DNA from: a virus | Length of the DNA: 64,000 bases | Virus record (IMG/VR): IMGVR_UViG_3300045988_131786 | Location: 86,055-150,054 of that record | Strand: one strand, 5' to 3' | In this document: positions 4,001-17,906 of the stretch, piece by piece | Layout: every line of letters begins with the position of its first letter | How positions within the stretch are numbered: position 1 is the first letter of the stretch | The notes under the pieces: generated by a model | The model's database searches: none | Told to the model about the DNA's origin: nothing | Seen by the model: the letters and a program-made list of their open reading frames with translations, nothing else | Made by a program: the position numbers and the translations under genes

Positions 4001-7000
4001 TAATACAGTAGGTACTAATAAATTTACTTTAAAAGTAGATTATATGGAATCTTCTGGTACTTATAATATGGGTCTTGCGAATTTAGTCAATACAGCTTAT
4101 TCACATCATCCATTAAGAGATTATAATAGTGCAGAAGCTTTTGTTACTGGAACCGCAGGAAAAGAAACTCTTATTTCAGCATATCCTGCTAATGGATTAT
4201 GTTGGTACAGAAACCATAAAGGTAATTGGAAATGTGCATCAACTGGCGACGCTAGTAGAGATGAACAATTAATTACTACTCCTTATGGTGATGTATTAGG
4301 AGATATTTCTTGTACAAGTGCCGCAGATTTTGCTAAAGGACCATGGCAATTAGCTAAAGAGCAAGGACAAACTAAAGTTCTTGGTGGAACTAAGAAAACT
4401 TTACCAAATTCATTAGATGACATTGATACTATTACTAATAATATTAATCAAACTAGTGAAAACGGTACTTATGATGACCTTAAAGGTTATATTAACAAAT
4501 GGTATTCATATGTTCCAGGTACATTATCTCCTATCACTGTAGGTAATTTAAGTGACTATAGAACTTCTGTTCAAGGATTCCCTACTTTAGCATTCTGGCA
4601 GACAAAAACTGGAAAAGAAAATAAACAAGAACCATTATTTATTGGACGTTATAATATGTTACTTGATAAAGGTTCTGCTGAAGCATATGGATTTAAACTT
4701 GGTGGAAGTTATAAACAAGCTTTTATTGAAGGTAATCCATCAGTAGCTGATGTCGCTGAATGTTGGGAATTTGAAAACAACTCTCGTGGTTATTGTTCAT
4801 TTAGAGACCCATGGAGTCGTAAGGAACTTTCCTTTAAAGCTCCAGTAGGAGAAAGTAATGAATTTACCGCAAAAGGCGCACCTATTGTTGCCGACTATTT
4901 TGAATATAGATATAATGCTAATGATGATTATATTGATATGCTTTATAGTATGAATGCTTCTTTTGAAAATACTAATACTATAAAGAAATTACAAAAACAG
5001 TTTGGCGCAGACCAAATTACTGATATTGCTTCTGGTCGTAAAAAATTACTTGATTTATATAGTAATTGGGAAAGAGCAGTAGCATGGGTATGGTCAACTG
5101 CAACAGATGCTGTAATTGATGGAAAAGCTGTTCCTACTCTTGGTTCTTATAATAAAATTGAATTAGCAGAATATGTTTTTACTCCAAATAAATTTTATAT
5201 TGAGGATGAACAAGGCGGATATAAATTTGCTACTGAATATAAAACTGGTATTTCTTATTACTTAATGAATAATGATAAACAATACTATGGTGTTACAGTA
5301 ACAAATGAAGCTAATAAGGTATATGTAGCTAATAAATATTATACTTTAGAGAATGATAGCTATGTTCTTGCTGAGGGAACATATGATTCTAGTGAAGCAT
5401 ATTATGAATTAGTACAAGATACAAGTAAAATTGATGAGTTTTGGAAGCTTCCAGCGCCAGTAACTTATGGAATAACAACTTATGAATATGATACACAAGA
5501 ATATCGTTTAGCTAAGTTTAAAAATGAGGTTGAAGATCACTTTAATCTTGAATACTTAGTAACATATTTTGTAATTACTGAAGTTCTTGAATGTTATGAT
5601 TCTCGTGGAAAGAATGCAATGTTTGCTTCTTGGGGTCCTCAAAAGGCTAAAGGAGATTATATCTGGTATCCAATTTTCTACGATATGGATACACAGTTAG
5701 GTATCAACAATACTGGTATTCCTTCTTTTGAATATAACATTGATGCTACTGAAGATGGAACATTCTCTACTAATGATAGTGTTCTGTGGAATAATTTGTA
5801 TGCGCTGTTTAAAAATCTGATTACAGATAAATATGAGCAGTTAACAGGAGTTCCTAGTGATTATTTTGGTGGAACACTTGCAAATCCTCCATTTGTTAAC
5901 GTAGAAACTATTCAAAGTTGGTATACATGTGACCCTAAATATATTAAGAGTTATTCTGTAAAAGGAGTTAGACCTTTACTTGCTCTTAATCTTGATGAGC
6001 AATATAAATATATCTCTATTACTAATGGTAAAGTCGGTTATCAATATCAAAATGGTGAAATAACCCAAGATACAAGTAACACTTATTTCTATGCTTTACA
6101 AGGTGATAGAAAATTATCTAATAATCAGTTCTTAACAAACCGTTTGAATTATATTGATTCATGGTTGGCTGTAGGAAACTACAAGCGTGGCGGCGCAAAT
6201 AGAATTCGTTCTCGTGTATCCGCAAATAATGCACAAAATACATCAGATAAATGGATTGAGGGTACTTCTACTAATGGTGCTAGTGGTCTTATCATTAATA
6301 CACCTTATTATAAAGAAGACGGAAAAACTAAAACTCATTTATTCGATGGTGAATATTGGATTACAATGACACCTGTTCGTAATATGTATGTAACTGTTGG
6401 TACTGATGCGGCAAATTTCCCATCTCTGAAATATTCTGGTACTCCTGTACGTTTTGAAACTTCGGACTTGGAAAAAGGTGTACGCGAAAGTGGTAACTAT
6501 CGTGAGCAGTTATATTATATTTATGGACTTGACCAAATGAAATCACTTGGAGATTTAAGTAGATTATATTTCCAAGAGTTTGAACTTTCTGGTAAAGCTT
6601 CTAAGATGGTAGATTTACTTCTTGGATATGATGGAACTGATGAAGAAGGAAGTCAATATAAAAATAGTGGCGTAAATGATTGGACAATCCCAGCTGCTGC
6701 AGGTACTATTACTGGTGGTATGCCATTATTAAGAGAGGTTAATTTAAGTAATATTACTTTTAAAAACCAAACTCCTACATTTGATTTTTCAAGTTGTGAA
6801 AAACTTGAGAATTTCCGTGATATTGGTTCAAACATTACTCAAGTTACTTTTGCTGATGGTGTTGCTTTAAATACTTTGTATTTATCTGATTCTACAGTAA
6901 ACTTAAAACTTGTTGAAGCTAGATTACTTACTGATTTAGTAACTGATGAAAAAGCTCCAATTACTAGAAAGAAAGACAATACACTTACAGCTAAACCTGG

Positions 7001-12142: not shown

Positions 12143-12232
12143 GGACAAAAATAATTAAAACAAAATTAGATATTTTTATAAATTCATAGAGATATAAAAA
12201 ACTTAAATGAAATGAGAAAAAGGAGGTTAAAC

Positions 12233-15200
12233 ATGGCAGACAATACAATAGCTAATGCTATTAAATTTTTAAAAGGCGAAGAAAAAAGTTTGCCTGCAAC
12301 CAAAACTGAAGGTCAAGTATATTTTGCCTATAAGAATGTCGGCACCGCAGAAAAACCTTCATATACAGGTGCTATTTATATAGATACTCCTATTGGAGGA
12401 ACTCAAACTAGAGTAAAAATGACCGCGAATGCGGATATAGCAGATAAAGCATTTAATGATTCTGCTGGATTAAATATTAGAGAAACTTATTTAAGTAGTT
12501 TAGGATATACAGATGATGGTAAGCAAACTATATTAATTAAAGGTAGTGGAAATAACCAAACAAAAATAGCATTACCAATAGCTAGTACAACTAAATCTGG
12601 TATTGTTACTACTGATGCTCAAAGTTTTGGTGGAACAAAGACTTTTGCTACTATTAATTCTACTAATTTAACTGTAACTGGTTCTAGTGGTTTTAATTAT
12701 AGTGGTATTGAAACTGCTACTGAAAGTAAAGCACGACCTATATGGTTTGCAGATAATTCTGGTAATGGTAAACCTGTAGTTAATATTAATTTTACTTATA
12801 ATCCTGCTACTCAGACTCTTAGTGTTGCGAATTTATCTGGAACCGCAGATAAAGCCAATAAAGATAATGCTGGATATGATATTAGAAGCACTTATATTAG
12901 TAATATTACTTTAGATGATAGTATTATGACTATTACTAAAGGGTCTGGAGCTACTTCAACATTAAGTATAAAAGATAAACTTTATAGTGGTGATGAAATA
13001 ACAACTAAAGATGATTTAGATGATTTTATTGAGACTAATGTTTTTAAATTTGGACATATAGGTCCTATAGAAGGCTATAACGGCTTAGAGAAAAATGATG
13101 GAATTATTTTAAGCAGCTCTTGGAAAACTACTCCAAATTATGGTCATCAGATTTTTATAGATGATAGTGGTTATGCTTTAAGACATAGATATAGAACTAA
13201 TAAAGTTTGGTCAGATTGGGCTTCAATTCTTGATTCAACTAATTATAATAGTTACGCTCCTACTAAGACTGGTGGCGGAGCTTCTGGTACTTGGGGTATT
13301 AATATTTCAGGTAATGCCGCGAGTGCTAATAAATTAAATACTAATGCAGGTTCAGCAATCTTACCAGTGTATTTTTCTAACGGTGTGCCAGTAGCTTGTA
13401 GTACAAATTTAGGAGTTAGTATAACAGGAAATGCAGCTTCTGCTACTAAATTAACTTCAAGTGCAGGCTCTGCTACACAGCCTATTTATTTTAAAGATGG
13501 GAAACCAGTAGCTACTACTTACTCTTTGAATGCTACTGTAAAAGCAGGAGTATCTAGTAGAATAGCTTATTATTCTGGAAATAATGAGATTTCAAGTGCA
13601 AGTTCTTTAAAATATTATACTACCACTAATAATAAAAAAGCAATACAAACTATTTTACGAATTTGGGGTTCTACTTATGGTAATGACATAAATACTACAA
13701 TTAGCGGTAAAGCAAGTTCTTTGAGTTGGAATGATGGCGGTCCGCAAATACAATTTAGTACTTCTGAAGCGGGAGCCCAAGATGGAGCTTTAATTTTTAC
13801 AGACCATGATTCAGCAGGTATTGGAGCAAGTTTTCATTTTGTATCAAATCAAAGCGAATGGAGCGTTGTTTCTAAAAGATTTGTTGCAAAAACAAGCGTA
13901 ATTATTGGTCAAGAAAATCATACTGCTAATAATCAAGGTTATAATTTATATGTTAATGGAACTGAATATATTAATGGAATTTTAACAGCTGTTGGTGATT
14001 GTAAATTTATTGCTCATGGTAATGAATTCAATTTTGTTCCAACATTAAAAGCTTCGACAAAGGTATGGTTTAATTATAGACAAACTGGTGGACAACCCAC
14101 AGATGGTGATTTTATTATTAATGAATATATTTTTGGCAATGGAGCAAATAAAGCTTTAGCAAGCATTAAAGATGGTTTATTTTCCGGAGCAGCTACTTAT
14201 GTACGTGATTCTAATAATAATACGAATAATATTTCAATAACTTATTCTAAGGCTGGACAAGCTTCAACTTCTTGGCTTGCTTCTTGGAATGAATATGAAT
14301 TAGGCCGAATTTCCCCCGCTAATATTACTGCGGGTAAAGCTACTAAATTAGCTACAGCACGTACTATAACTTTATCTGGAGCTGTAACTGGTTCAGTTAG
14401 TTTTGATGGTAGTGCAAATGTAACTCTTACTACAAGTGTTAATCATACGCATAGTCAATATTATGATTCAAATATATCAAGAACTAAAAATACAGTACTT
14501 GCTGCACCAAATGGAACAGATGGAAAAGCTATCTTTAGAAGTTTGGTGGCTGCAGATATTCCTTCTTTAACCAAAAGCAAAATATCTGATTTTCCAACAT
14601 CTATGCCCGCAAGTGATGTATACGCTTGGGCGAAAGCTTCTACGAAACCAAGCTATTCTTGGGGTGAGATTACTGGTAAGCCTAGTACATTTACACCAAG
14701 TAGTCATGAGCATAGTTATATTATTGGTTATGGTACTAATACGATATCATCATCAAGCAAAGATACTCCTGCTGAATGGGGAAAATGTAAATGCAGTGTT
14801 CATTGGTATACTACATCTAATTATATTACTGACCAACCAACTCAGTGGGGATACTTGGTAAATATTGGAACTCCTGGCGAAGTTCATCAATTATGGTTAT
14901 CTCAACCAGGTGGAGCTATTGCCCATAGAGGTGGAAATGCTAACGGGTGGGAAGGTTCATGGAAAGTCATGCTTGATTCTTCCAACTATACTTCTTATAC
15001 AGTTACAAAATCTGGTTCGGGTGCATCTGGTACTTGGGGAATCAACGTTACAGGTAACGCCGCCACAGCAACCAAGCTTCAAACAGCACGTACTATTAGT
15101 TTAACAGGTTCAGTTACTGGTTCTGGAACTTTTGATGGATCTGGTAATTTAAGTATTACAACTTCAACTAACCATTCACATAGTCAGTATTTGCCATTAG

Positions 15201-15640
15201 CCGGTGGCACTATGACTGGTACTATTAATTTTACTGTTAATAAATTAGCTTGCAATTTTAGAAGTGGTAGCAATAGCTTTCGTTCTGGTGTAATGCATCA
15301 ATCAGATGGAAATGAAGCTTTAGTTTTTGCAGTAGCAAGGGCAACTACTAGTTTTATATTTAAATGTGGACAAGATCCTGTTGGTATGACGTCTTCTACT
15401 TGGAAGAATATTACCCCTTCAATGCAAATAAGAAATCAAAGCGTATATATAAATTATTTAGTTAAAAGTGATGCAGTAGCAAGTTATAATTTATATGTAA
15501 ATGGCACTACTCGTTGCAATGGAACTTTAGGAGTAGGAAATGGTTCGAATGCGGAAATAGATTTTTTCCCTAATAGTGCTTCAATTATTGGCGCTAGAAT
15601 TAAAGCTTATAGCGATAGAATAGAATTCATATTTAGTTAA
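12233..15640 (+). CDS. Long tail fibre protein (about 1,135 aa) with internally duplicated repeat modules
   Basis: ATG at 12233 has AGGAGG 6 nt upstream; the track's ATG at 12212 lies inside the RBS. The N-terminus GQVYFAYKNVGTAEKPSYTGAIYIDT is fibre-like. Duplicated blocks are TGGGASGTWGINISGNAASANKL / SGSGASGTWGINVTGNAATATKL and ARTITLSGAVTGSVSFDGSANVTLTTSVNHTHSQYY / ARTISLTGSVTGSGTFDGSGNLSITTSTNHSHSQYL. Confidence 0.75.
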   Translation: MADNTIANAIKFLKGEEKSLPATKTEGQVYFAYKNVGTAEKPSYTGAIYIDTPIGGTQTRVKMTANADIADKAFNDSAGLNIRETYLSSLGYTDDGKQTILIKGSGNNQTKIALPIASTTKSGIVTTDAQSFGGTKTFATINSTNLTVTGSSGFNYSGIETATESKARPIWFADNSGNGKPVVNINFTYNPATQTLSVANLSGTADKANKDNAGYDIRSTYISNITLDDSIMTITKGSGATSTLSIKDKLYSGDEITTKDDLDDFIETNVFKFGHIGPIEGYNGLEKNDGIILSSSWKTTPNYGHQIFIDDSGYALRHRYRTNKVWSDWASILDSTNYNSYAPTKTGGGASGTWGINISGNAASANKLNTNAGSAILPVYFSNGVPVACSTNLGVSITGNAASATKLTSSAGSATQPIYFKDGKPVATTYSLNATVKAGVSSRIAYYSGNNEISSASSLKYYTTTNNKKAIQTILRIWGSTYGNDINTTISGKASSLSWNDGGPQIQFSTSEAGAQDGALIFTDHDSAGIGASFHFVSNQSEWSVVSKRFVAKTSVIIGQENHTANNQGYNLYVNGTEYINGILTAVGDCKFIAHGNEFNFVPTLKASTKVWFNYRQTGGQPTDGDFIINEYIFGNGANKALASIKDGLFSGAATYVRDSNNNTNNISITYSKAGQASTSWLASWNEYELGRISPANITAGKATKLATARTITLSGAVTGSVSFDGSANVTLTTSVNHTHSQYYDSNISRTKNTVLAAPNGTDGKAIFRSLVAADIPSLTKSKISDFPTSMPASDVYAWAKASTKPSYSWGEITGKPSTFTPSSHEHSYIIGYGTNTISSSSKDTPAEWGKCKCSVHWYTTSNYITDQPTQWGYLVNIGTPGEVHQLWLSQPGGAIAHRGGNANGWEGSWKVMLDSSNYTSYTVTKSGSGASGTWGINVTGNAATATKLQTARTISLTGSVTGSGTFDGSGNLSITTSTNHSHSQYLPLAGGTMTGTINFTVNKLACNFRSGSNSFRSGVMHQSDGNEALVFAVARATTSFIFKCGQDPVGMTSSTWKNITPSMQIRNQSVYINYLVKSDAVASYNLYVNGTTRCNGTLGVGNGSNAEIDFFPNSASIIGARIKAYSDRIEFIFS

Positions 15641-15655
15641 TATAAAAATTTAATA

Positions 15656-15694
15656 GGTTAAGGTCAGTTAATTTGACTTTAACCTATTTTTTTT
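15656..15694 (+). terminator. Rho-independent terminator
   Basis: aggttaaggtca ... tgactttaacct stem followed by tttttttt. Confidence 0.6.
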
Positions 15695-15728
15695 ATACTA
15701 TTTTTTAGATATAAAGGAGATTAAATAT

Positions 15729-16646
15729 ATGTTATGGGATAAAAAAGATAATTTATATGCTGAAGGATCGAGCGTCAGAAATGATAAACCCTACTTTTAT
15801 TATTATTATGAAAATCATTCACAATTTTTTATTTCTAAAGATTGGGTTGCATACTATCCCGGCCCTGGCTTTACTGAAGGTTATGTAAATAATACTTTTG
15901 AATCTGGACCTCAGTATACTTATGATAAAGCACATATGAAAACTGTAAAGCACACTTTAAAAAATGGAACATCTTATAATCTTTATACAGTTTTTATGGC
16001 TACCAATGGATTTGGACGAGAAGGAGCTGTACTATTTCGTATTTGGTCAACAGATGATTCAACAAGATCCCCTGCTTTTGGGGTTATAAGTGCCACAGGT
16101 TATGGTGCTGCCACTATTTCAGAAACATCAGGAATAAAAGATGCATGGGTATTATTAAATTTAACTTACAACCAATCTTCAAATTCTTATATATTTAGTA
16201 TGAATAGATATGATTGTACATCAAAAAGATGGTTGAGTAATAGACTTAGTACTGAAAATAATAATATTAATTTTTCACAGTCTGGTCTTAATGCTTTGAA
16301 AATGCCCAATGGTTATAATCCTCAAGAATTTAGTGAATATTTTCCAAAATTTATAATAAATATGTCTGAACCAGGTGAATATGGTTTTTCTAATTTTTTA
16401 GGATATAGCGTTAATATTACTGAAGCAGAAGCAGAAGAAATCATAAATGGAAAATTTTTTTATTCTAAAACTAATAATTCAATGTATGCTTTATTTTATA
16501 ATGAATATACTCAAAAAGAAGCTTACCCTAATACAACTTTTTATTATGATGGGACTATAATACCAAGAGGACAATTAGTTGAGGGTGCAATAAATCAAGT
16601 ATGTAAAAATGGCGATATAAAATCTCAAGAATTTATTGAGTATTAA
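15729..16646 (+). CDS. Hypothetical protein (305 aa), Tyr/Asn-rich, located between the tail fibre gene and the cassette array
   Basis: ORF with AAGGAGAT 8 nt upstream of the ATG. Its stop codon lies 2 nt upstream of the first copy of the conserved 47-nt module. Confidence 0.5.
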   Translation: MLWDKKDNLYAEGSSVRNDKPYFYYYYENHSQFFISKDWVAYYPGPGFTEGYVNNTFESGPQYTYDKAHMKTVKHTLKNGTSYNLYTVFMATNGFGREGAVLFRIWSTDDSTRSPAFGVISATGYGAATISETSGIKDAWVLLNLTYNQSSNSYIFSMNRYDCTSKRWLSNRLSTENNNINFSQSGLNALKMPNGYNPQEFSEYFPKFIINMSEPGEYGFSNFLGYSVNITEAEAEEIINGKFFYSKTNNSMYALFYNEYTQKEAYPNTTFYYDGTIIPRGQLVEGAINQVCKNGDIKSQEFIEY

Positions 16647-16648
16647 TT

Positions 16649-16695
16649 AACTTAAATCAACTACTATTAACGGAAACTTATCCGTCACTGGGAAT
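16649..16695 (+). repeat. Copy 1 of a 47-nt direct repeat module (aacttaaatcaactactattaacggaaacttatccgtcactgggaat). The module encodes (Q/*)LKSTTINGNLSVTGN.
   Basis: Nucleotide-identical to 17038..17084 and 17478..17524, as read directly from the sequence. Confidence 0.9.
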
Positions 16696-17031
16696 ATCTC
16701 ATGTCCTGGATTAAGAGCAAATTTTGGGTTGATAACTTATAATTATGGTAATTTAGGTTCACTAGGAGGAAATTATTGTTATTGGAATGATTTTTTCTTA
16801 TATGCACATATTGCATTTCAATTTCCAGATAATATTCCTGGTGGAACTTTATTAATGACATTTCCAGCTTCATCAACTGCAAATCTAACTAATATAGGAT
16901 TTTGCGGTTTCAATAATGCGACACAGACACAAAACATTGTAGCATTTAATTTTATTGGAAATAAAATGTATATGTGTACAAATAGACCGGCTGCAGGTAA
17001 CTTTAGCTTTGATATTATTTTACCTAGATAA
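16651..17031 (+). CDS. Cassette 1. The open frame runs from the module (LKSTTINGNLSVTGN) into a roughly 110-aa variable domain. There is no canonical start codon or RBS, and a TAA sits immediately 5' of the module.
   Basis: The frame is open from 16651 to the stop at 17029..17031. The ORF track calls only 16729..17031, from TTG. This first cassette is the most divergent of the three. Confidence 0.4.
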   Translation, partial: LKSTTINGNLSVTGNISCPGLRANFGLITYNYGNLGSLGGNYCYWNDFFLYAHIAFQFPDNIPGGTLLMTFPASSTANLTNIGFCGFNNATQTQNIVAFNFIGNKMYMCTNRPAAGNFSFDIILPR

Positions 17032-17037
17032 AAAATT

Positions 17038-17084
17038 AACTTAAATCAACTACTATTAACGGAAACTTATCCGTCACTGGGAAT
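17038..17084 (+). repeat. Copy 2 of the 47-nt direct repeat module
   Basis: Identical to copies 1 and 3. Confidence 0.9.
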
Positions 17085-17429
17085 TTGGTTAAAAATGATA
17101 GTTGGACAGGTAGTGTTAACTGTAATTCTGGTTTTGTACTTACTATTAGATTTTACAAAGTAAGTAATTTAGTTTTTGGAACTTTTGATTTTGCTACTCA
17201 AGCTGGAAAAACTATACCACCTTGGAAATGGATTAACATTTGTCCCGCTGGAACTATACCGATTAATTTTAGACCAAAATCAAGTAATAAAGATATGATG
17301 ATTTCTTTACAAGGTGTTGGTGCAGGTAAAGTTGGATTTAATATTGATGGAAGTATTGATATGATGTGTTTTGATACTTTTCAGTCACAGCATGAAGGTG
17401 GTATGCAAGTTATTTATCTTGTAGATTGA
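17040..17429 (+). CDS. Cassette 2. The module frame continues into a variable domain paralogous to cassette 3. There is no ATG or RBS; a TAA lies immediately 5', and a TTG at 17085 follows the module.
   Basis: The translation LKSTTINGNLSVTGN-LVKNDSWTGSVNCNSGF...FATQAGKTIPPWKWINICPAGTIPINFRP...GAGKVGFNIDGSIDMMCFDTF...GGMQVIYLVD aligns with cassette 3 (WTGSFACNSGY...FATASEKSIPAWKWTRISPAGAIPSNFRP...GAGAINFNADGSIDVNCYGTF...GGLQVIYPIN). Confidence 0.45.
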   Translation, partial: LKSTTINGNLSVTGNLVKNDSWTGSVNCNSGFVLTIRFYKVSNLVFGTFDFATQAGKTIPPWKWINICPAGTIPINFRPKSSNKDMMISLQGVGAGKVGFNIDGSIDMMCFDTFQSQHEGGMQVIYLVD

Positions 17430-17470
17430 GATATTCCAATTTTTTGTAAACAAAAAGGAGGAAAATTTAC

Positions 17471-17866
17471 ATGGCGCAACTTAAATCAACTACTATTAAC
17501 GGAAACTTATCCGTCACTGGGAATTTTAATTATAATAATTATTGGACGGGTTCTTTTGCTTGCAATTCTGGATATAAAGCATCAGGCACCTTATGGAGAA
17601 TAGGTAATTTGGTTATTGGCTATTTTACTTTTGCTACAGCAAGTGAAAAAAGTATACCAGCCTGGAAATGGACTAGAATTTCTCCTGCTGGAGCTATTCC
17701 GAGTAATTTCAGGCCAAATGTAAATAGATCCCAATCTATTGCATTACAAAAAATCGGTGCAGGAGCAATAAATTTTAATGCAGACGGAAGTATTGATGTA
17801 AACTGCTATGGAACTTTTGGTGGACCTTGGGCTGGAGGATTACAAGTTATTTATCCTATAAATTAA
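17471..17866 (+). CDS. Cassette 3. This is the only copy with a canonical RBS and ATG (MAQ + LKSTTINGNLSVTGN + variable domain). It is a putative tail-fibre tip or adhesin-like protein of 131 aa.
   Basis: AAAGGAGG lies 9 nt upstream of the ATG. The module sits at codons 4 to 18. The variable domain is paralogous to cassette 2. Confidence 0.7.
   Translation: MAQLKSTTINGNLSVTGNFNYNNYWTGSFACNSGYKASGTLWRIGNLVIGYFTFATASEKSIPAWKWTRISPAGAIPSNFRPNVNRSQSIALQKIGAGAINFNADGSIDVNCYGTFGGPWAGGLQVIYPIN
17478..17524 (+). repeat. Copy 3 of the 47-nt direct repeat module
   Basis: Identical to copies 1 and 2. Confidence 0.9.
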
Positions 17867-17906
17867 GATATTCTAATTTTTTAGAAATAAAAAGGAGATA
17901 TTAAAA

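Follow-up and report, generated by a model that had tools for sequence, protein, structure and literature searches.

A gut phage array of three putative receptor-binding head cassettes, two of them start-less, that may be switched by recombination within a shared 45-nt module

We analyzed an array of three tandem cassettes in viral DNA from the IMG/VR record IMGVR_UViG_3300045988_131786, of which the 64,000 nucleotides (nt) between positions 86,055 and 150,054 were examined as one stretch (the window, to which coordinates refer unless another contig is named). The three cassettes share one sequence module at or near their 5' ends. This module, CTTAAATCAACTACTATTAACGGAAACTTATCCGTCACTGGGAAT, is 45 nt long, opens with CTTAAATC, closes with GGGAAT, and is present in three exact copies on the plus strand, at 16651-16695 (copy 1), 17040-17084 (copy 2), and 17480-17524 (copy 3), with no mismatch between them; three-way identity already starts two bases 5' of the module, at AACTT (16649, 17038, and 17478; repeat family D1). 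No match was obtained in 100 shuffles of the window, and a search allowing up to three mismatches found neither a further nor a reverse-strand copy in the 64 kb. Copy 1 codes for LKSTTINGNLSVTGN and is proposed below to serve as a recombination substrate. All cassettes lie on the plus strand and specify products of ~130 amino acids (aa) each: cassette 1 (c1, 16651-17031) is open for 126 codons from the module to its stop, cassette 2 (c2, 17040-17429) for 129 codons followed by a TGA stop, and cassette 3 (c3, 17471-17866) encodes a 131-aa protein, predicted to be a receptor-binding protein (RBP) and the expressed copy in this genome. The bodies of c2 and c3 are 50% identical, c1 being the most divergent of the three.

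Only the third module copy is joined to a start codon. The corresponding expression head, ATG GCG CAA (Met-Ala-Gln, 17471-17479, plus strand), is preceded by a spacer (17430-17470, plus strand) in which the array has its sole Shine-Dalgarno (SD) motif, AAGGAGG (17455-17461), separated from the ATG by 9 nt. At the other two cassettes the sequence AATTAA stands in front of the module on the plus strand (16645-16650 and 17034-17039), so that a module-frame TAA (16648-16650 and 17037-17039) directly abuts copies 1 and 2. An earlier, sequence-only reading of this DNA had described copies 1 and 2 as lacking any start or SD and as preceded by TAA where copy 3 has CAA; the letters of the window confirm this description, along with the module frames of +1 (15729 versus 16651) and -1 (16651 versus 17040) relative to the upstream genes. 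The distances of 2 and 6 nt that it gave between the upstream genes and copies 1 and 2 are correct if counted to the AACTT repeat, with the upstream open reading frames (ORFs) ending at 16646 and 17031, 4 and 8 nt before the CTT of the module. Likewise, the two TTG codons that it had named are indeed the first canonical in-frame starts: 16729-16731 (plus strand) is codon 27 of c1, 33 nt past the module, and 17085-17087 (plus strand) is codon 16 of c2 and abuts module copy 2. No SD-like motif was found 5' of any candidate start in c1 or c2 of the window. By comparison, an SD match of at least 4 nt is present at 36 of the 51 ORF starts in the window (71%), versus 15% of background ATG/GTG/TTG triplets.

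Family searches did not identify the cassette products: neither c1, c2, nor c3 matched a Pfam or PHROG family at E ≤ 0.01, and tblastn with the c3 protein returned no match among 50,697 deposited phage records. Structure prediction was applied to c3 only, as a monomer. The AlphaFold model reached a predicted local distance difference test (pLDDT) score of 85.5, with values near 90 in a beta-sandwich body and of 53-57 in the first 20 residues; this low-confidence N-terminus is compatible with a segment that becomes ordered on assembly, but is no proof of it. In Foldseek searches, the top 25 PDB matches were all RBP heads of the TP901-1, p2, or bIL170 type (probability 1.00, E = 4.5e-5 to 7e-4), with TP901-1 ORF49 as best match (2f0c, E = 4.5e-5) followed by p2 ORF18, and the template modeling (TM) score against lactococcal RBPs amounted to up to 0.72 on the head. 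Adenovirus fiber knobs matched the model more weakly than lactococcal RBPs, and matching BFVD structures include annotated RBPs and minor tail proteins. Besides the head-domain fold shared by its model with TP901-1 BppL/ORF49 and p2 ORF18, c3 resembles these proteins in being small (131 aa versus 163 aa) and in having a short N-terminal segment followed by a beta-sandwich head, and the array, like lactococcal RBP genes, adjoins tail and baseplate genes. Sequence identity to the lactococcal proteins is, unlike these features, only about 19-20%, and the kinship predicted by the model is confined to the level of fold. Alternative RBP heads are therefore the best reading of the cassettes, for c3 from its modeled fold, for c2 probably from its 50% body identity to c3, and for c1 presumably from weaker homology. 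The module peptide, (M-A-Q-)LKSTTINGNLSVTGN, would correspond to a stalk or docking segment, in analogy to TP901-1. Lactococcal phages harbor one complete RBP gene, in contrast to the intragenomic array of start-less heads described here, and evidence of head swapping among them comes from comparing phages with one another and from engineered chimeras.

To place the window among its relatives, we used 11 further distinct array-bearing genomes obtained by protein searches and contig look-ups, all of them short-read metagenome assemblies (contigs are labeled L and protein entries P in the following). An exact search of IMG/VR with 38 nt of the module yielded no match because relatives differ at synonymous sites, and IMG/VR relatives were found with a degenerate module pattern. 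The TAA/CAA position, whose comparison across related phages the sequence-only reading had suggested, behaves differently at the two start-less copies. Junction 1, with TAA directly 5' of the module, is identical in 11 of 11 array-bearing genomes, whereas the TAA of junction 2 is lineage-specific: one group carries AGATAAAAAATTAA before the CTT of the module, the other (L001, L002, L022, L023, L028, and L029) CCTAGAA. In the latter, GAA precedes the module, an in-frame stop lies four codons upstream, and the stop of c1 is formed from the CT-TAA-A of the module itself. As TAA is replaced by GAA at copy 2 in some lineages, it is incidental, and the constant feature of start-less copies is the missing head of ribosome-binding site (RBS), ATG, GCG, and CAA. 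The candidate TTG starts are no better preserved. TTG 17085 reads TTT in six lineages (L001, L002, L022, L023, L024, and L029), and TTG 16729 gives way to ACA-ATG in the L001 lineage and to TTA in L019, while the L029 lineage lacks it. The first canonical start lies between codons 27 and 69 in c1 and between codons 16 and 86 in c2, depending on the genome; the extremes, codons 69 and 86, come from the L029 lineage (16 contigs), in which both ORFs are open from the module. Public protein calls for these cassettes measure 100, 114, or 58-59 aa and run from a TTG or an internal Met (truncated entries P0021, P0024, P0026, and P0037-P0043), and elsewhere the cassettes were left uncalled, as in an 818-nt gap in L002 and a 464-nt gap in L007; the truncated entries are very probably annotation artefacts.

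The start-less frames are nevertheless maintained. Counted from the module, the frame is intact for c1 in 10 of 11 genomes and for c2 in all of them, and ~19 distinct c1 and c2 sequences contain no frameshifting indel, the sole indel between c1 lineages being in frame. The three-cassette layout is kept even between lineages with cassette bodies that are 13-18% divergent at the nucleotide level. Ratios of nonsynonymous to synonymous substitution rates (dN/dS) are 0.29-0.71 for c1 and 0.15-0.61 for c2, compared with 0.34-0.70 for the expressed c3, and the excess of synonymous changes in c2 is significant (P = 4.5e-5 to 1.3e-3) over a synonymous divergence (dS) of about 0.55.

Several relatives contain rearranged arrays in which a cassette type that is start-less in the window stands behind the expression signals. 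Contig L021 reads c1, c2, SD-ATG-c2, SD-ATG-c3, without any difference in 387 nt between its two c2 copies. In L023, and likewise in IMG/VR contig L028, an 822-nt duplication results in the order c1, c2, SD-ATG-c1, c2, SD-ATG-c3; the c1 and c2 duplicates of L023 again show 0 differences, and the first and third cassettes of L028 encode an identical c1 protein. L022 reads c1, c2, SD-ATG-c1, c3, and here it is c3 that is start-less, behind a CCTAGAA junction. Throughout L021-L023 the duplicated bodies are the same over 384-387 nt, with 0 differences, and the module contains every boundary; the SD-bearing spacer has been duplicated along with the cassettes in L021, L023, and L028. Two short contigs from two samples (L019 and L020), one of them assembled with k = 141, exceeding the repeat, close as a 468-nt loop of module, c1, spacer, SD, and ATG. 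The expressed position is thus taken by c1 in L022, L023, L028, and the L019/L020 loop contigs, and ATG-headed c1 proteins are represented by entries P0023, P0027, P0029, P0031, and P0032. The same nine bases, ATG GCG CAA, precede every ATG-headed cassette of any type in the relatives. Rearrangement events comprise at least three sequence backgrounds and six samples, and the standard array of L002 and the duplicated one of L023 are 98.4-99.1% identical over the shared array plus about 5 kb downstream. As assembled, L021, L022, L023, and L028 keep the putatively silent donor in addition to an ATG-headed copy. The recombinant joints concerned are ATGGCGCAA-module-c1/c2 body and c1 end-module-c3 body; since assembly with k = 55 or k = 141 uses words longer than the shared repeat of 45-51 nt, these joints should reflect real reads. 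Being start-less therefore depends on the position in the array, because identical copies are ATG-headed in relatives. The sequence-only reading had considered that related phages with an own ATG and RBS for each copy would reduce the start-less copies to a problem of annotated starts. Copies with these signals do exist, but only in rearranged arrays and by copying of a single head sequence, so that misannotated starts are not the explanation.

Sequence comparisons of the module point in the same direction. In array genomes, identity at third codon positions is 0.93 for the module versus 0.76 for the bodies, and single-copy phages reverse this order (0.67 for the module versus 0.87 for the body). 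Module copies within a genome share derived synonymous changes, with CTA and GTT present in all copies of L002, L022, and L023, and the module thus evolves in concert within genomes. In the single-copy phages, which are of temperate type, the homologue has the layout of any normal gene, with a hairpin and an RBS of its own and the start ATG GCT CAA CTT AAA, which identifies the module as the genuine N-terminus of the protein. One change stands apart: module copy 2 of L029, L030, and L033 (L029 2676-2720) carries TCC->TTC, converting NLSVTGN to NLFVTGN in a start-less copy. It is the sole nonsynonymous module change besides those in the last codon and fits a somewhat relaxed constraint while the cassette is silent.

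Considering the array anatomy, the intact and constrained start-less ORFs, the rearranged arrays of relatives, and the RBP fold displayed by the c3 model together, we regard it as probable that the locus is an array of RBP heads with one expression head, in which recombination at the module moves start-less heads behind the SD-ATG. The three alternative heads would share this single expression head, and the module would have a dual role, coding for a constant N-terminal peptide that attaches any head to the same tail site and supplying homology for recombination. In the window, the sole SD and ATG GCG CAA position would hold c3, with c1 and c2 stored in frame and untranslatable. The direct module repeats would recombine unequally in replicating co-infecting or concatemeric genomes, whereby units are duplicated or deleted: crossover between copies 3 and 2 would bring c2 behind the SD-ATG head, crossover between copies 3 and 1 would bring c1 there, and a later deletion could leave c3 start-less. 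The outcome would be a virion population with different heads or head pairs, that is, a host-range switch that works reversibly by recombination. The recombination would probably be carried out by proteins that the phage itself encodes. The window encodes functions of homologous recombination, namely RuvC, a RecJ-like DHH/DHHA1 nuclease, and an AAA_24 protein, of a family that we take to be that of Sak4-type recombinases, and 45-50 nt of identity is enough for homologous recombination in phages. No integrase, resolvase, invertase, or reverse transcriptase is among the families listed for 48 other window ORFs, and no integrase, resolvase, or invertase among the Pfam matches of 10 locus proteins. 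We infer that the recombination is homologous and not site-specific, that c1 and c2 are, judged from their letters, silent in situ, and that switching is adaptive. Of the options raised by the sequence-only reading, that of silent donor cassettes is favored by the ATG-headed, module-bounded c1 and c2 copies identical to start-less ones; the observed products are, however, duplications and deletions by unequal crossover and not strict replacement-type gene conversion. With less assurance, we lean towards a viral silent-cassette system of host range, in which bursts would always include minority head sets (c3; c2 and c3; c1 and c3; c1 alone) as a form of bet-hedging against variation of host receptors.

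A number of observations weigh against this interpretation. An ATG-headed c2 was found in one protein entry only (P0058), on one contig (L021), and for identical duplications the copy number and exact order are inferences of the assembler. Low-frequency polymerase chain reaction (PCR) chimeras at the 47-nt repeat could produce the short loop contigs, and are less likely as the source of the main path in 24-181-kb scaffolds. Because the first 43 nt do not differ between the module copies of any one rearranged genome, the crossover point is unmappable in the module, and a site-specific enzyme encoded beyond the 64-kb window may be at work. Weak non-canonical initiation or re-initiation may also occur in c1 and c2. 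Moreover, the signal of purifying selection on c1 is weak (P = 0.019-0.3), c1 of L002 (5188-5574) has a nonsense change of TCA->TAA at codon 91 that is not shared by the intact copies of the close relatives L022 and L023, and c2 of L007 has been deleted except for its last ~12 codons (1897-1965), upstream of the SD. It follows that single cassettes can be dispensed with, and part of the array could be decaying.

Carried further, these last points lead to an account in which the start-less cassettes are leftovers of past duplication and deletion, and the rearrangements non-adaptive instability of a repeat, with genes being born and lost at a hypervariable tail locus and no switch involved. Apart from the statistically weak selection on c1, it can draw on the decay seen in L002 c1, L007 c2, and an internally deleted c3 (P0020), on the lack of a dedicated recombinase adjoining the locus, and on the ease with which tail-fiber tandem duplications arise, such as those of 1.8 kb in EfV12-phi1 (PMC6365445). 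Yet c2 is under clear purifying selection across that synonymous divergence while being start-less in every standard array, frameshifting indels are lacking, and the layout outlasts the 13-18% divergence of the bodies. In addition, the module is in frame and near-identical at synonymous sites only in genomes that repeat it, and rearrangements recur in at least three backgrounds, each placing a silent type exactly behind the SD-ATG head. We consider this account unlikely; recent degeneration of duplicated genes, as proposed from the sequence alone, applies to the occasional decay of L002 c1 and L007 c2 but not to the constrained c2 or to the frames at large, nearly all of which are intact. A recombinase of the tyrosine or serine type (shufflon-, integron-, or Gin-like), with its gene beyond the 64 kb of the window, that recognizes the module as its site and excises and re-inserts cassettes as circles would keep the switch and change its mechanism. 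The self-closing 468-nt contigs L019 and L020 read as a cassette circle would after excision, a small inverted repeat (ACGGA-N6-TCCGT) is present in the module, and all rearrangement boundaries fall inside the module. In a de Bruijn assembly, however, a tandem duplication leaves a closed-loop contig just as well, and tandem duplications are seen on the long scaffolds; the module copies are also all direct in the window, unlike Gin/Cin or shufflon sites. Given also that the Pfam matches of the 48 window ORFs and 10 locus proteins include no integrase, resolvase, or invertase, and that the length of identity available is enough for homologous recombination, such an enzyme seems highly improbable.

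Translation of c1 and c2 in place, be it by termination-reinitiation or 70S scanning towards a TTG or a near-cognate codon, by a +1/-1 frameshift, by a short hop, or by readthrough, would dispense with a switch altogether: every phage would make all three heads, and the module would either be a leader or belong to the product. The gaps of 4 and 8 nt to the upstream stop have the geometry typical of translational coupling, and continuous expression is the simplest account of dN/dS values in c1 and c2 that equal those of the expressed c3. At junctions of the L001 type, the stop codon of c1 and the module overlap (ACT-TAA-A versus A-CTT-AAA), superficially like a +1 site, and ATT at module codon 6, a near-cognate start, is kept in most start-less copies. 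L007, L029, and L030, however, have ATC there in their start-less c1 module, and simple shifts are blocked by the stops directly 5' of the module in the window (TAA, at copy 2 also TAG four codons further upstream). The junction types, with TATTAATTAA, GATAAAAAATTAA, or CCTAGAA directly before the module, have neither a slippery heptamer nor matched take-off and landing codons in common, and the shifts needed differ, being +1 at the c1 junction, -1 at the c2 junction of the window, and +1 at the L001-type c2 junction. Explicit models were rejected because no common mechanism emerged from them: a hop from the upstream 305-aa gene to c1 would have to skip 7 nt from TAT and finds no landing codon to match, a hop from c1 to c2 in the window is an 11-nt skip from AGA across two stops, and the L001-type shift from ACT-TAA-A to A-CTT-AAA offers no tRNA re-pairing. 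RNA folding was no better than in shuffles (minimum free energy z = +0.35, -0.24, and +1.13) and gave just a 5-bp hairpin, and Rfam yielded no match at E ≤ 1, whether to a Group I/II intron or to another known RNA element. Neither a tRNA nor a suppressor tRNA decoding TAA was found, and an alternative genetic code is ruled out, as long ORFs end normally at TAA. The frameshift, bypass, or readthrough envisaged by the sequence-only reading has thus gained no recoding site, structure, or Rfam match. Its further suggestion, initiation at a TTG with the module as leader, is not supported either, given the lack of conservation of these codons, with whole lineages lacking a canonical start for 68 or 85 codons, and the absence of an SD at any c1 or c2 candidate start in a phage with 71% SD-bearing starts; a TTG-initiated product would also miss the N-terminal peptide kept by every ATG-headed homologue. 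We therefore find in-situ synthesis of all three heads quite unlikely.

Silent-cassette antigenic variation in bacteria is known from Neisseria pilE/pilS and from Borrelia vlsE, where vls cassettes are flanked by short direct repeats. As in these systems, the array has one copy with translation signals and stores start-less, in-frame, full-length variants nearby; short conserved repeats bound the variable part, with recombination being of RecA type in pilE/pilS and vlsE; donor copies persist, and the protein that varies is one of surface recognition. Of the features that define such systems, a single translation-competent copy, intact start-less cassettes, repeats evolving in concert, and copying that retains the donor are found in the array, the last of them in assemblies. 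Unlike pilE/pilS and vlsE, however, the array belongs to a virus and concerns a host-recognition head, not an immune target, and its changes duplicate or delete whole cassettes, whereas the bacterial systems convert segments of a fixed locus non-reciprocally. In the array the silent cassettes directly precede the expressed one, on one and the same strand, and in contrast to the bacterial loci no G-quadruplex (G4) or dedicated initiator was found.

Tail-fiber or recognition segments are switched by inversion in Mu G/Gin, P1 C/Cin, and the R64 shufflon (Rci). Similar to these, alternative C-terminal recognition parts would be joined to a constant N-terminus in the array, giving mixed populations, but inverted repeats and an adjacent recombinase stand on one side, and direct repeats with duplications and deletions on the other; in the window no inverted repeats flank the cassettes and no site-specific recombinase adjoins them. 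Campylobacter phages vary RBPs by phase variation at poly-G tracts, and BPP-1 Mtd by a diversity-generating retroelement (DGR). These systems, too, make a clonal phage population heterogeneous in receptor recognition, by slipped-strand frameshifting and by reverse-transcriptase mutagenesis, respectively, whereas the array has no homopolymer tract. No RVT family is listed for the window, and identical 45-mers before unrelated or 50%-identical bodies are not a template/variable repeat (TR/VR) pair. With regard to integrons, no integrase was found, the module has no attC-like extended stem, and the cassettes lie upstream of the expression signals and not downstream as in integron arrays. Poxvirus K3L amplification is a tandem-duplication accordion. 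In Enterococcus phage EfV12-phi1, 1.8-kb tail-fiber tandem duplications arise repeatedly under host resistance (PMC6365445). The array shares with both a reversible, recombination-driven change of copy number at a host-interaction gene of a large double-stranded DNA virus; K3L and EfV12-phi1 amplify one expressed sequence, affecting dosage or fiber length, while the array changes which head is joined to the start.

Searches of the open-access full-text literature brought up no account of start-less RBP heads kept in an array and switched by recombination between direct repeats, and to our knowledge no phage system of such design has been reported. The array thus points to the logic of known silent-cassette systems in a form undescribed for phages. 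If true, this would add a fourth route to receptor variation in phages, beside invertible segments, DGRs, and homopolymer phase variation, and one that needs no dedicated enzyme but just a short repeat that also codes for a constant docking peptide. Start-less but constrained ORFs beside tail genes may then be stored heads and not pseudogenes, and the model accounts for short closed-loop contigs and for collapsed or expanded assemblies at such loci. It would also represent a natural retargeting design, with one docking peptide and plug-in heads of about 110 aa, and host-range heterogeneity would be expected within populations of this gut phage lineage. The lineage, from the human gut, is abundant and uncultured, the exact c3 protein being present on 20 contigs. 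The locus nucleotides had no match among the 50,697 deposited phages; the nearest cultured relatives, as judged by the DnaE-type polymerase only, are SPbeta-like Bacillus phages (37% identity), and a host search of GTDB species genomes with a protein query and a DNA pattern gave no match.

The surroundings of the array place it in the host-recognition module, as a tail-fiber gene of 1142 aa (12212-15640, plus strand) that matches PHROG tail-fiber families with E down to 6.8e-23 lies upstream. The length of this fiber varies from 1004 to 1309 aa among relatives, and the gene contains internal, diverged direct repeats of 72% identity (13226-13320/14969-15063 and 14354-14462/15083-15191). The internal repeats and the variable length suggest that repeat-mediated remodeling, as at the array, may also act within the fiber shaft. 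Directly after the fiber gene, a 24-nt inverted repeat (15643-15697, 79% complementary, 7-nt loop) followed by a T run is likely an intrinsic terminator, which would separate the 305-aa gene and the array from the fiber transcription unit. The 305-aa gene itself (15729-16646, plus strand) is located directly upstream of c1, ends in QEFIEY-TAA (stop 16644-16646), and matches no Pfam or PHROG family. It is a mosaic: the N-terminus MLWDKKDNL and the C-terminus GQL.EG..NQ.CKNGDIK.QEFIEY* are common to the window and L001 (4251-5183), and the central ~250 residues are unrelated between the two. A 251-aa gene preceding the single RBP gene in temperate-type phages (L003 5154-5909) also ends in EFIEY*. 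The 305-aa protein may be an adaptor that carries the heads and has an exchangeable middle domain of its own.

On the 3' side the array is followed by a DUF1653 gene and a holin. The 3' end of c3 with its flank (17834-17897, plus strand) is 81% homologous to the 3' end and flank of c2 (17397-17460; D7), and the homology of the flanks extends over a T-rich stretch and over the RBS of the next gene. What was duplicated ancestrally was therefore a whole gene plus the downstream intergenic region with its RBS, and the start-less junctions of c1 and c2 are secondary. Two further alterations were noticed in relatives. In L007, the DUF1653 gene downstream of c3 (2395-2530) is apparently internally deleted and has lost its ATG (GTGAGATTACATGCAGG...), indicating that the region downstream of the array is also unstable. 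The c3 variant P0020 (98 aa, on a 516-nt contig) has an in-frame deletion of 33 residues directly after the module (MAQLKSTTINGNLSVTGNFNFATRSG...) and could be a deletion mutant or an assembly artefact. Finally, three ORFs with GIY-YIG domains are encoded on the minus strand of the window, within 21604-63784, and L015 alone carries an HNH endonuclease gene inserted downstream of the array (5412-5888); homing endonucleases of these types could stimulate local recombination.

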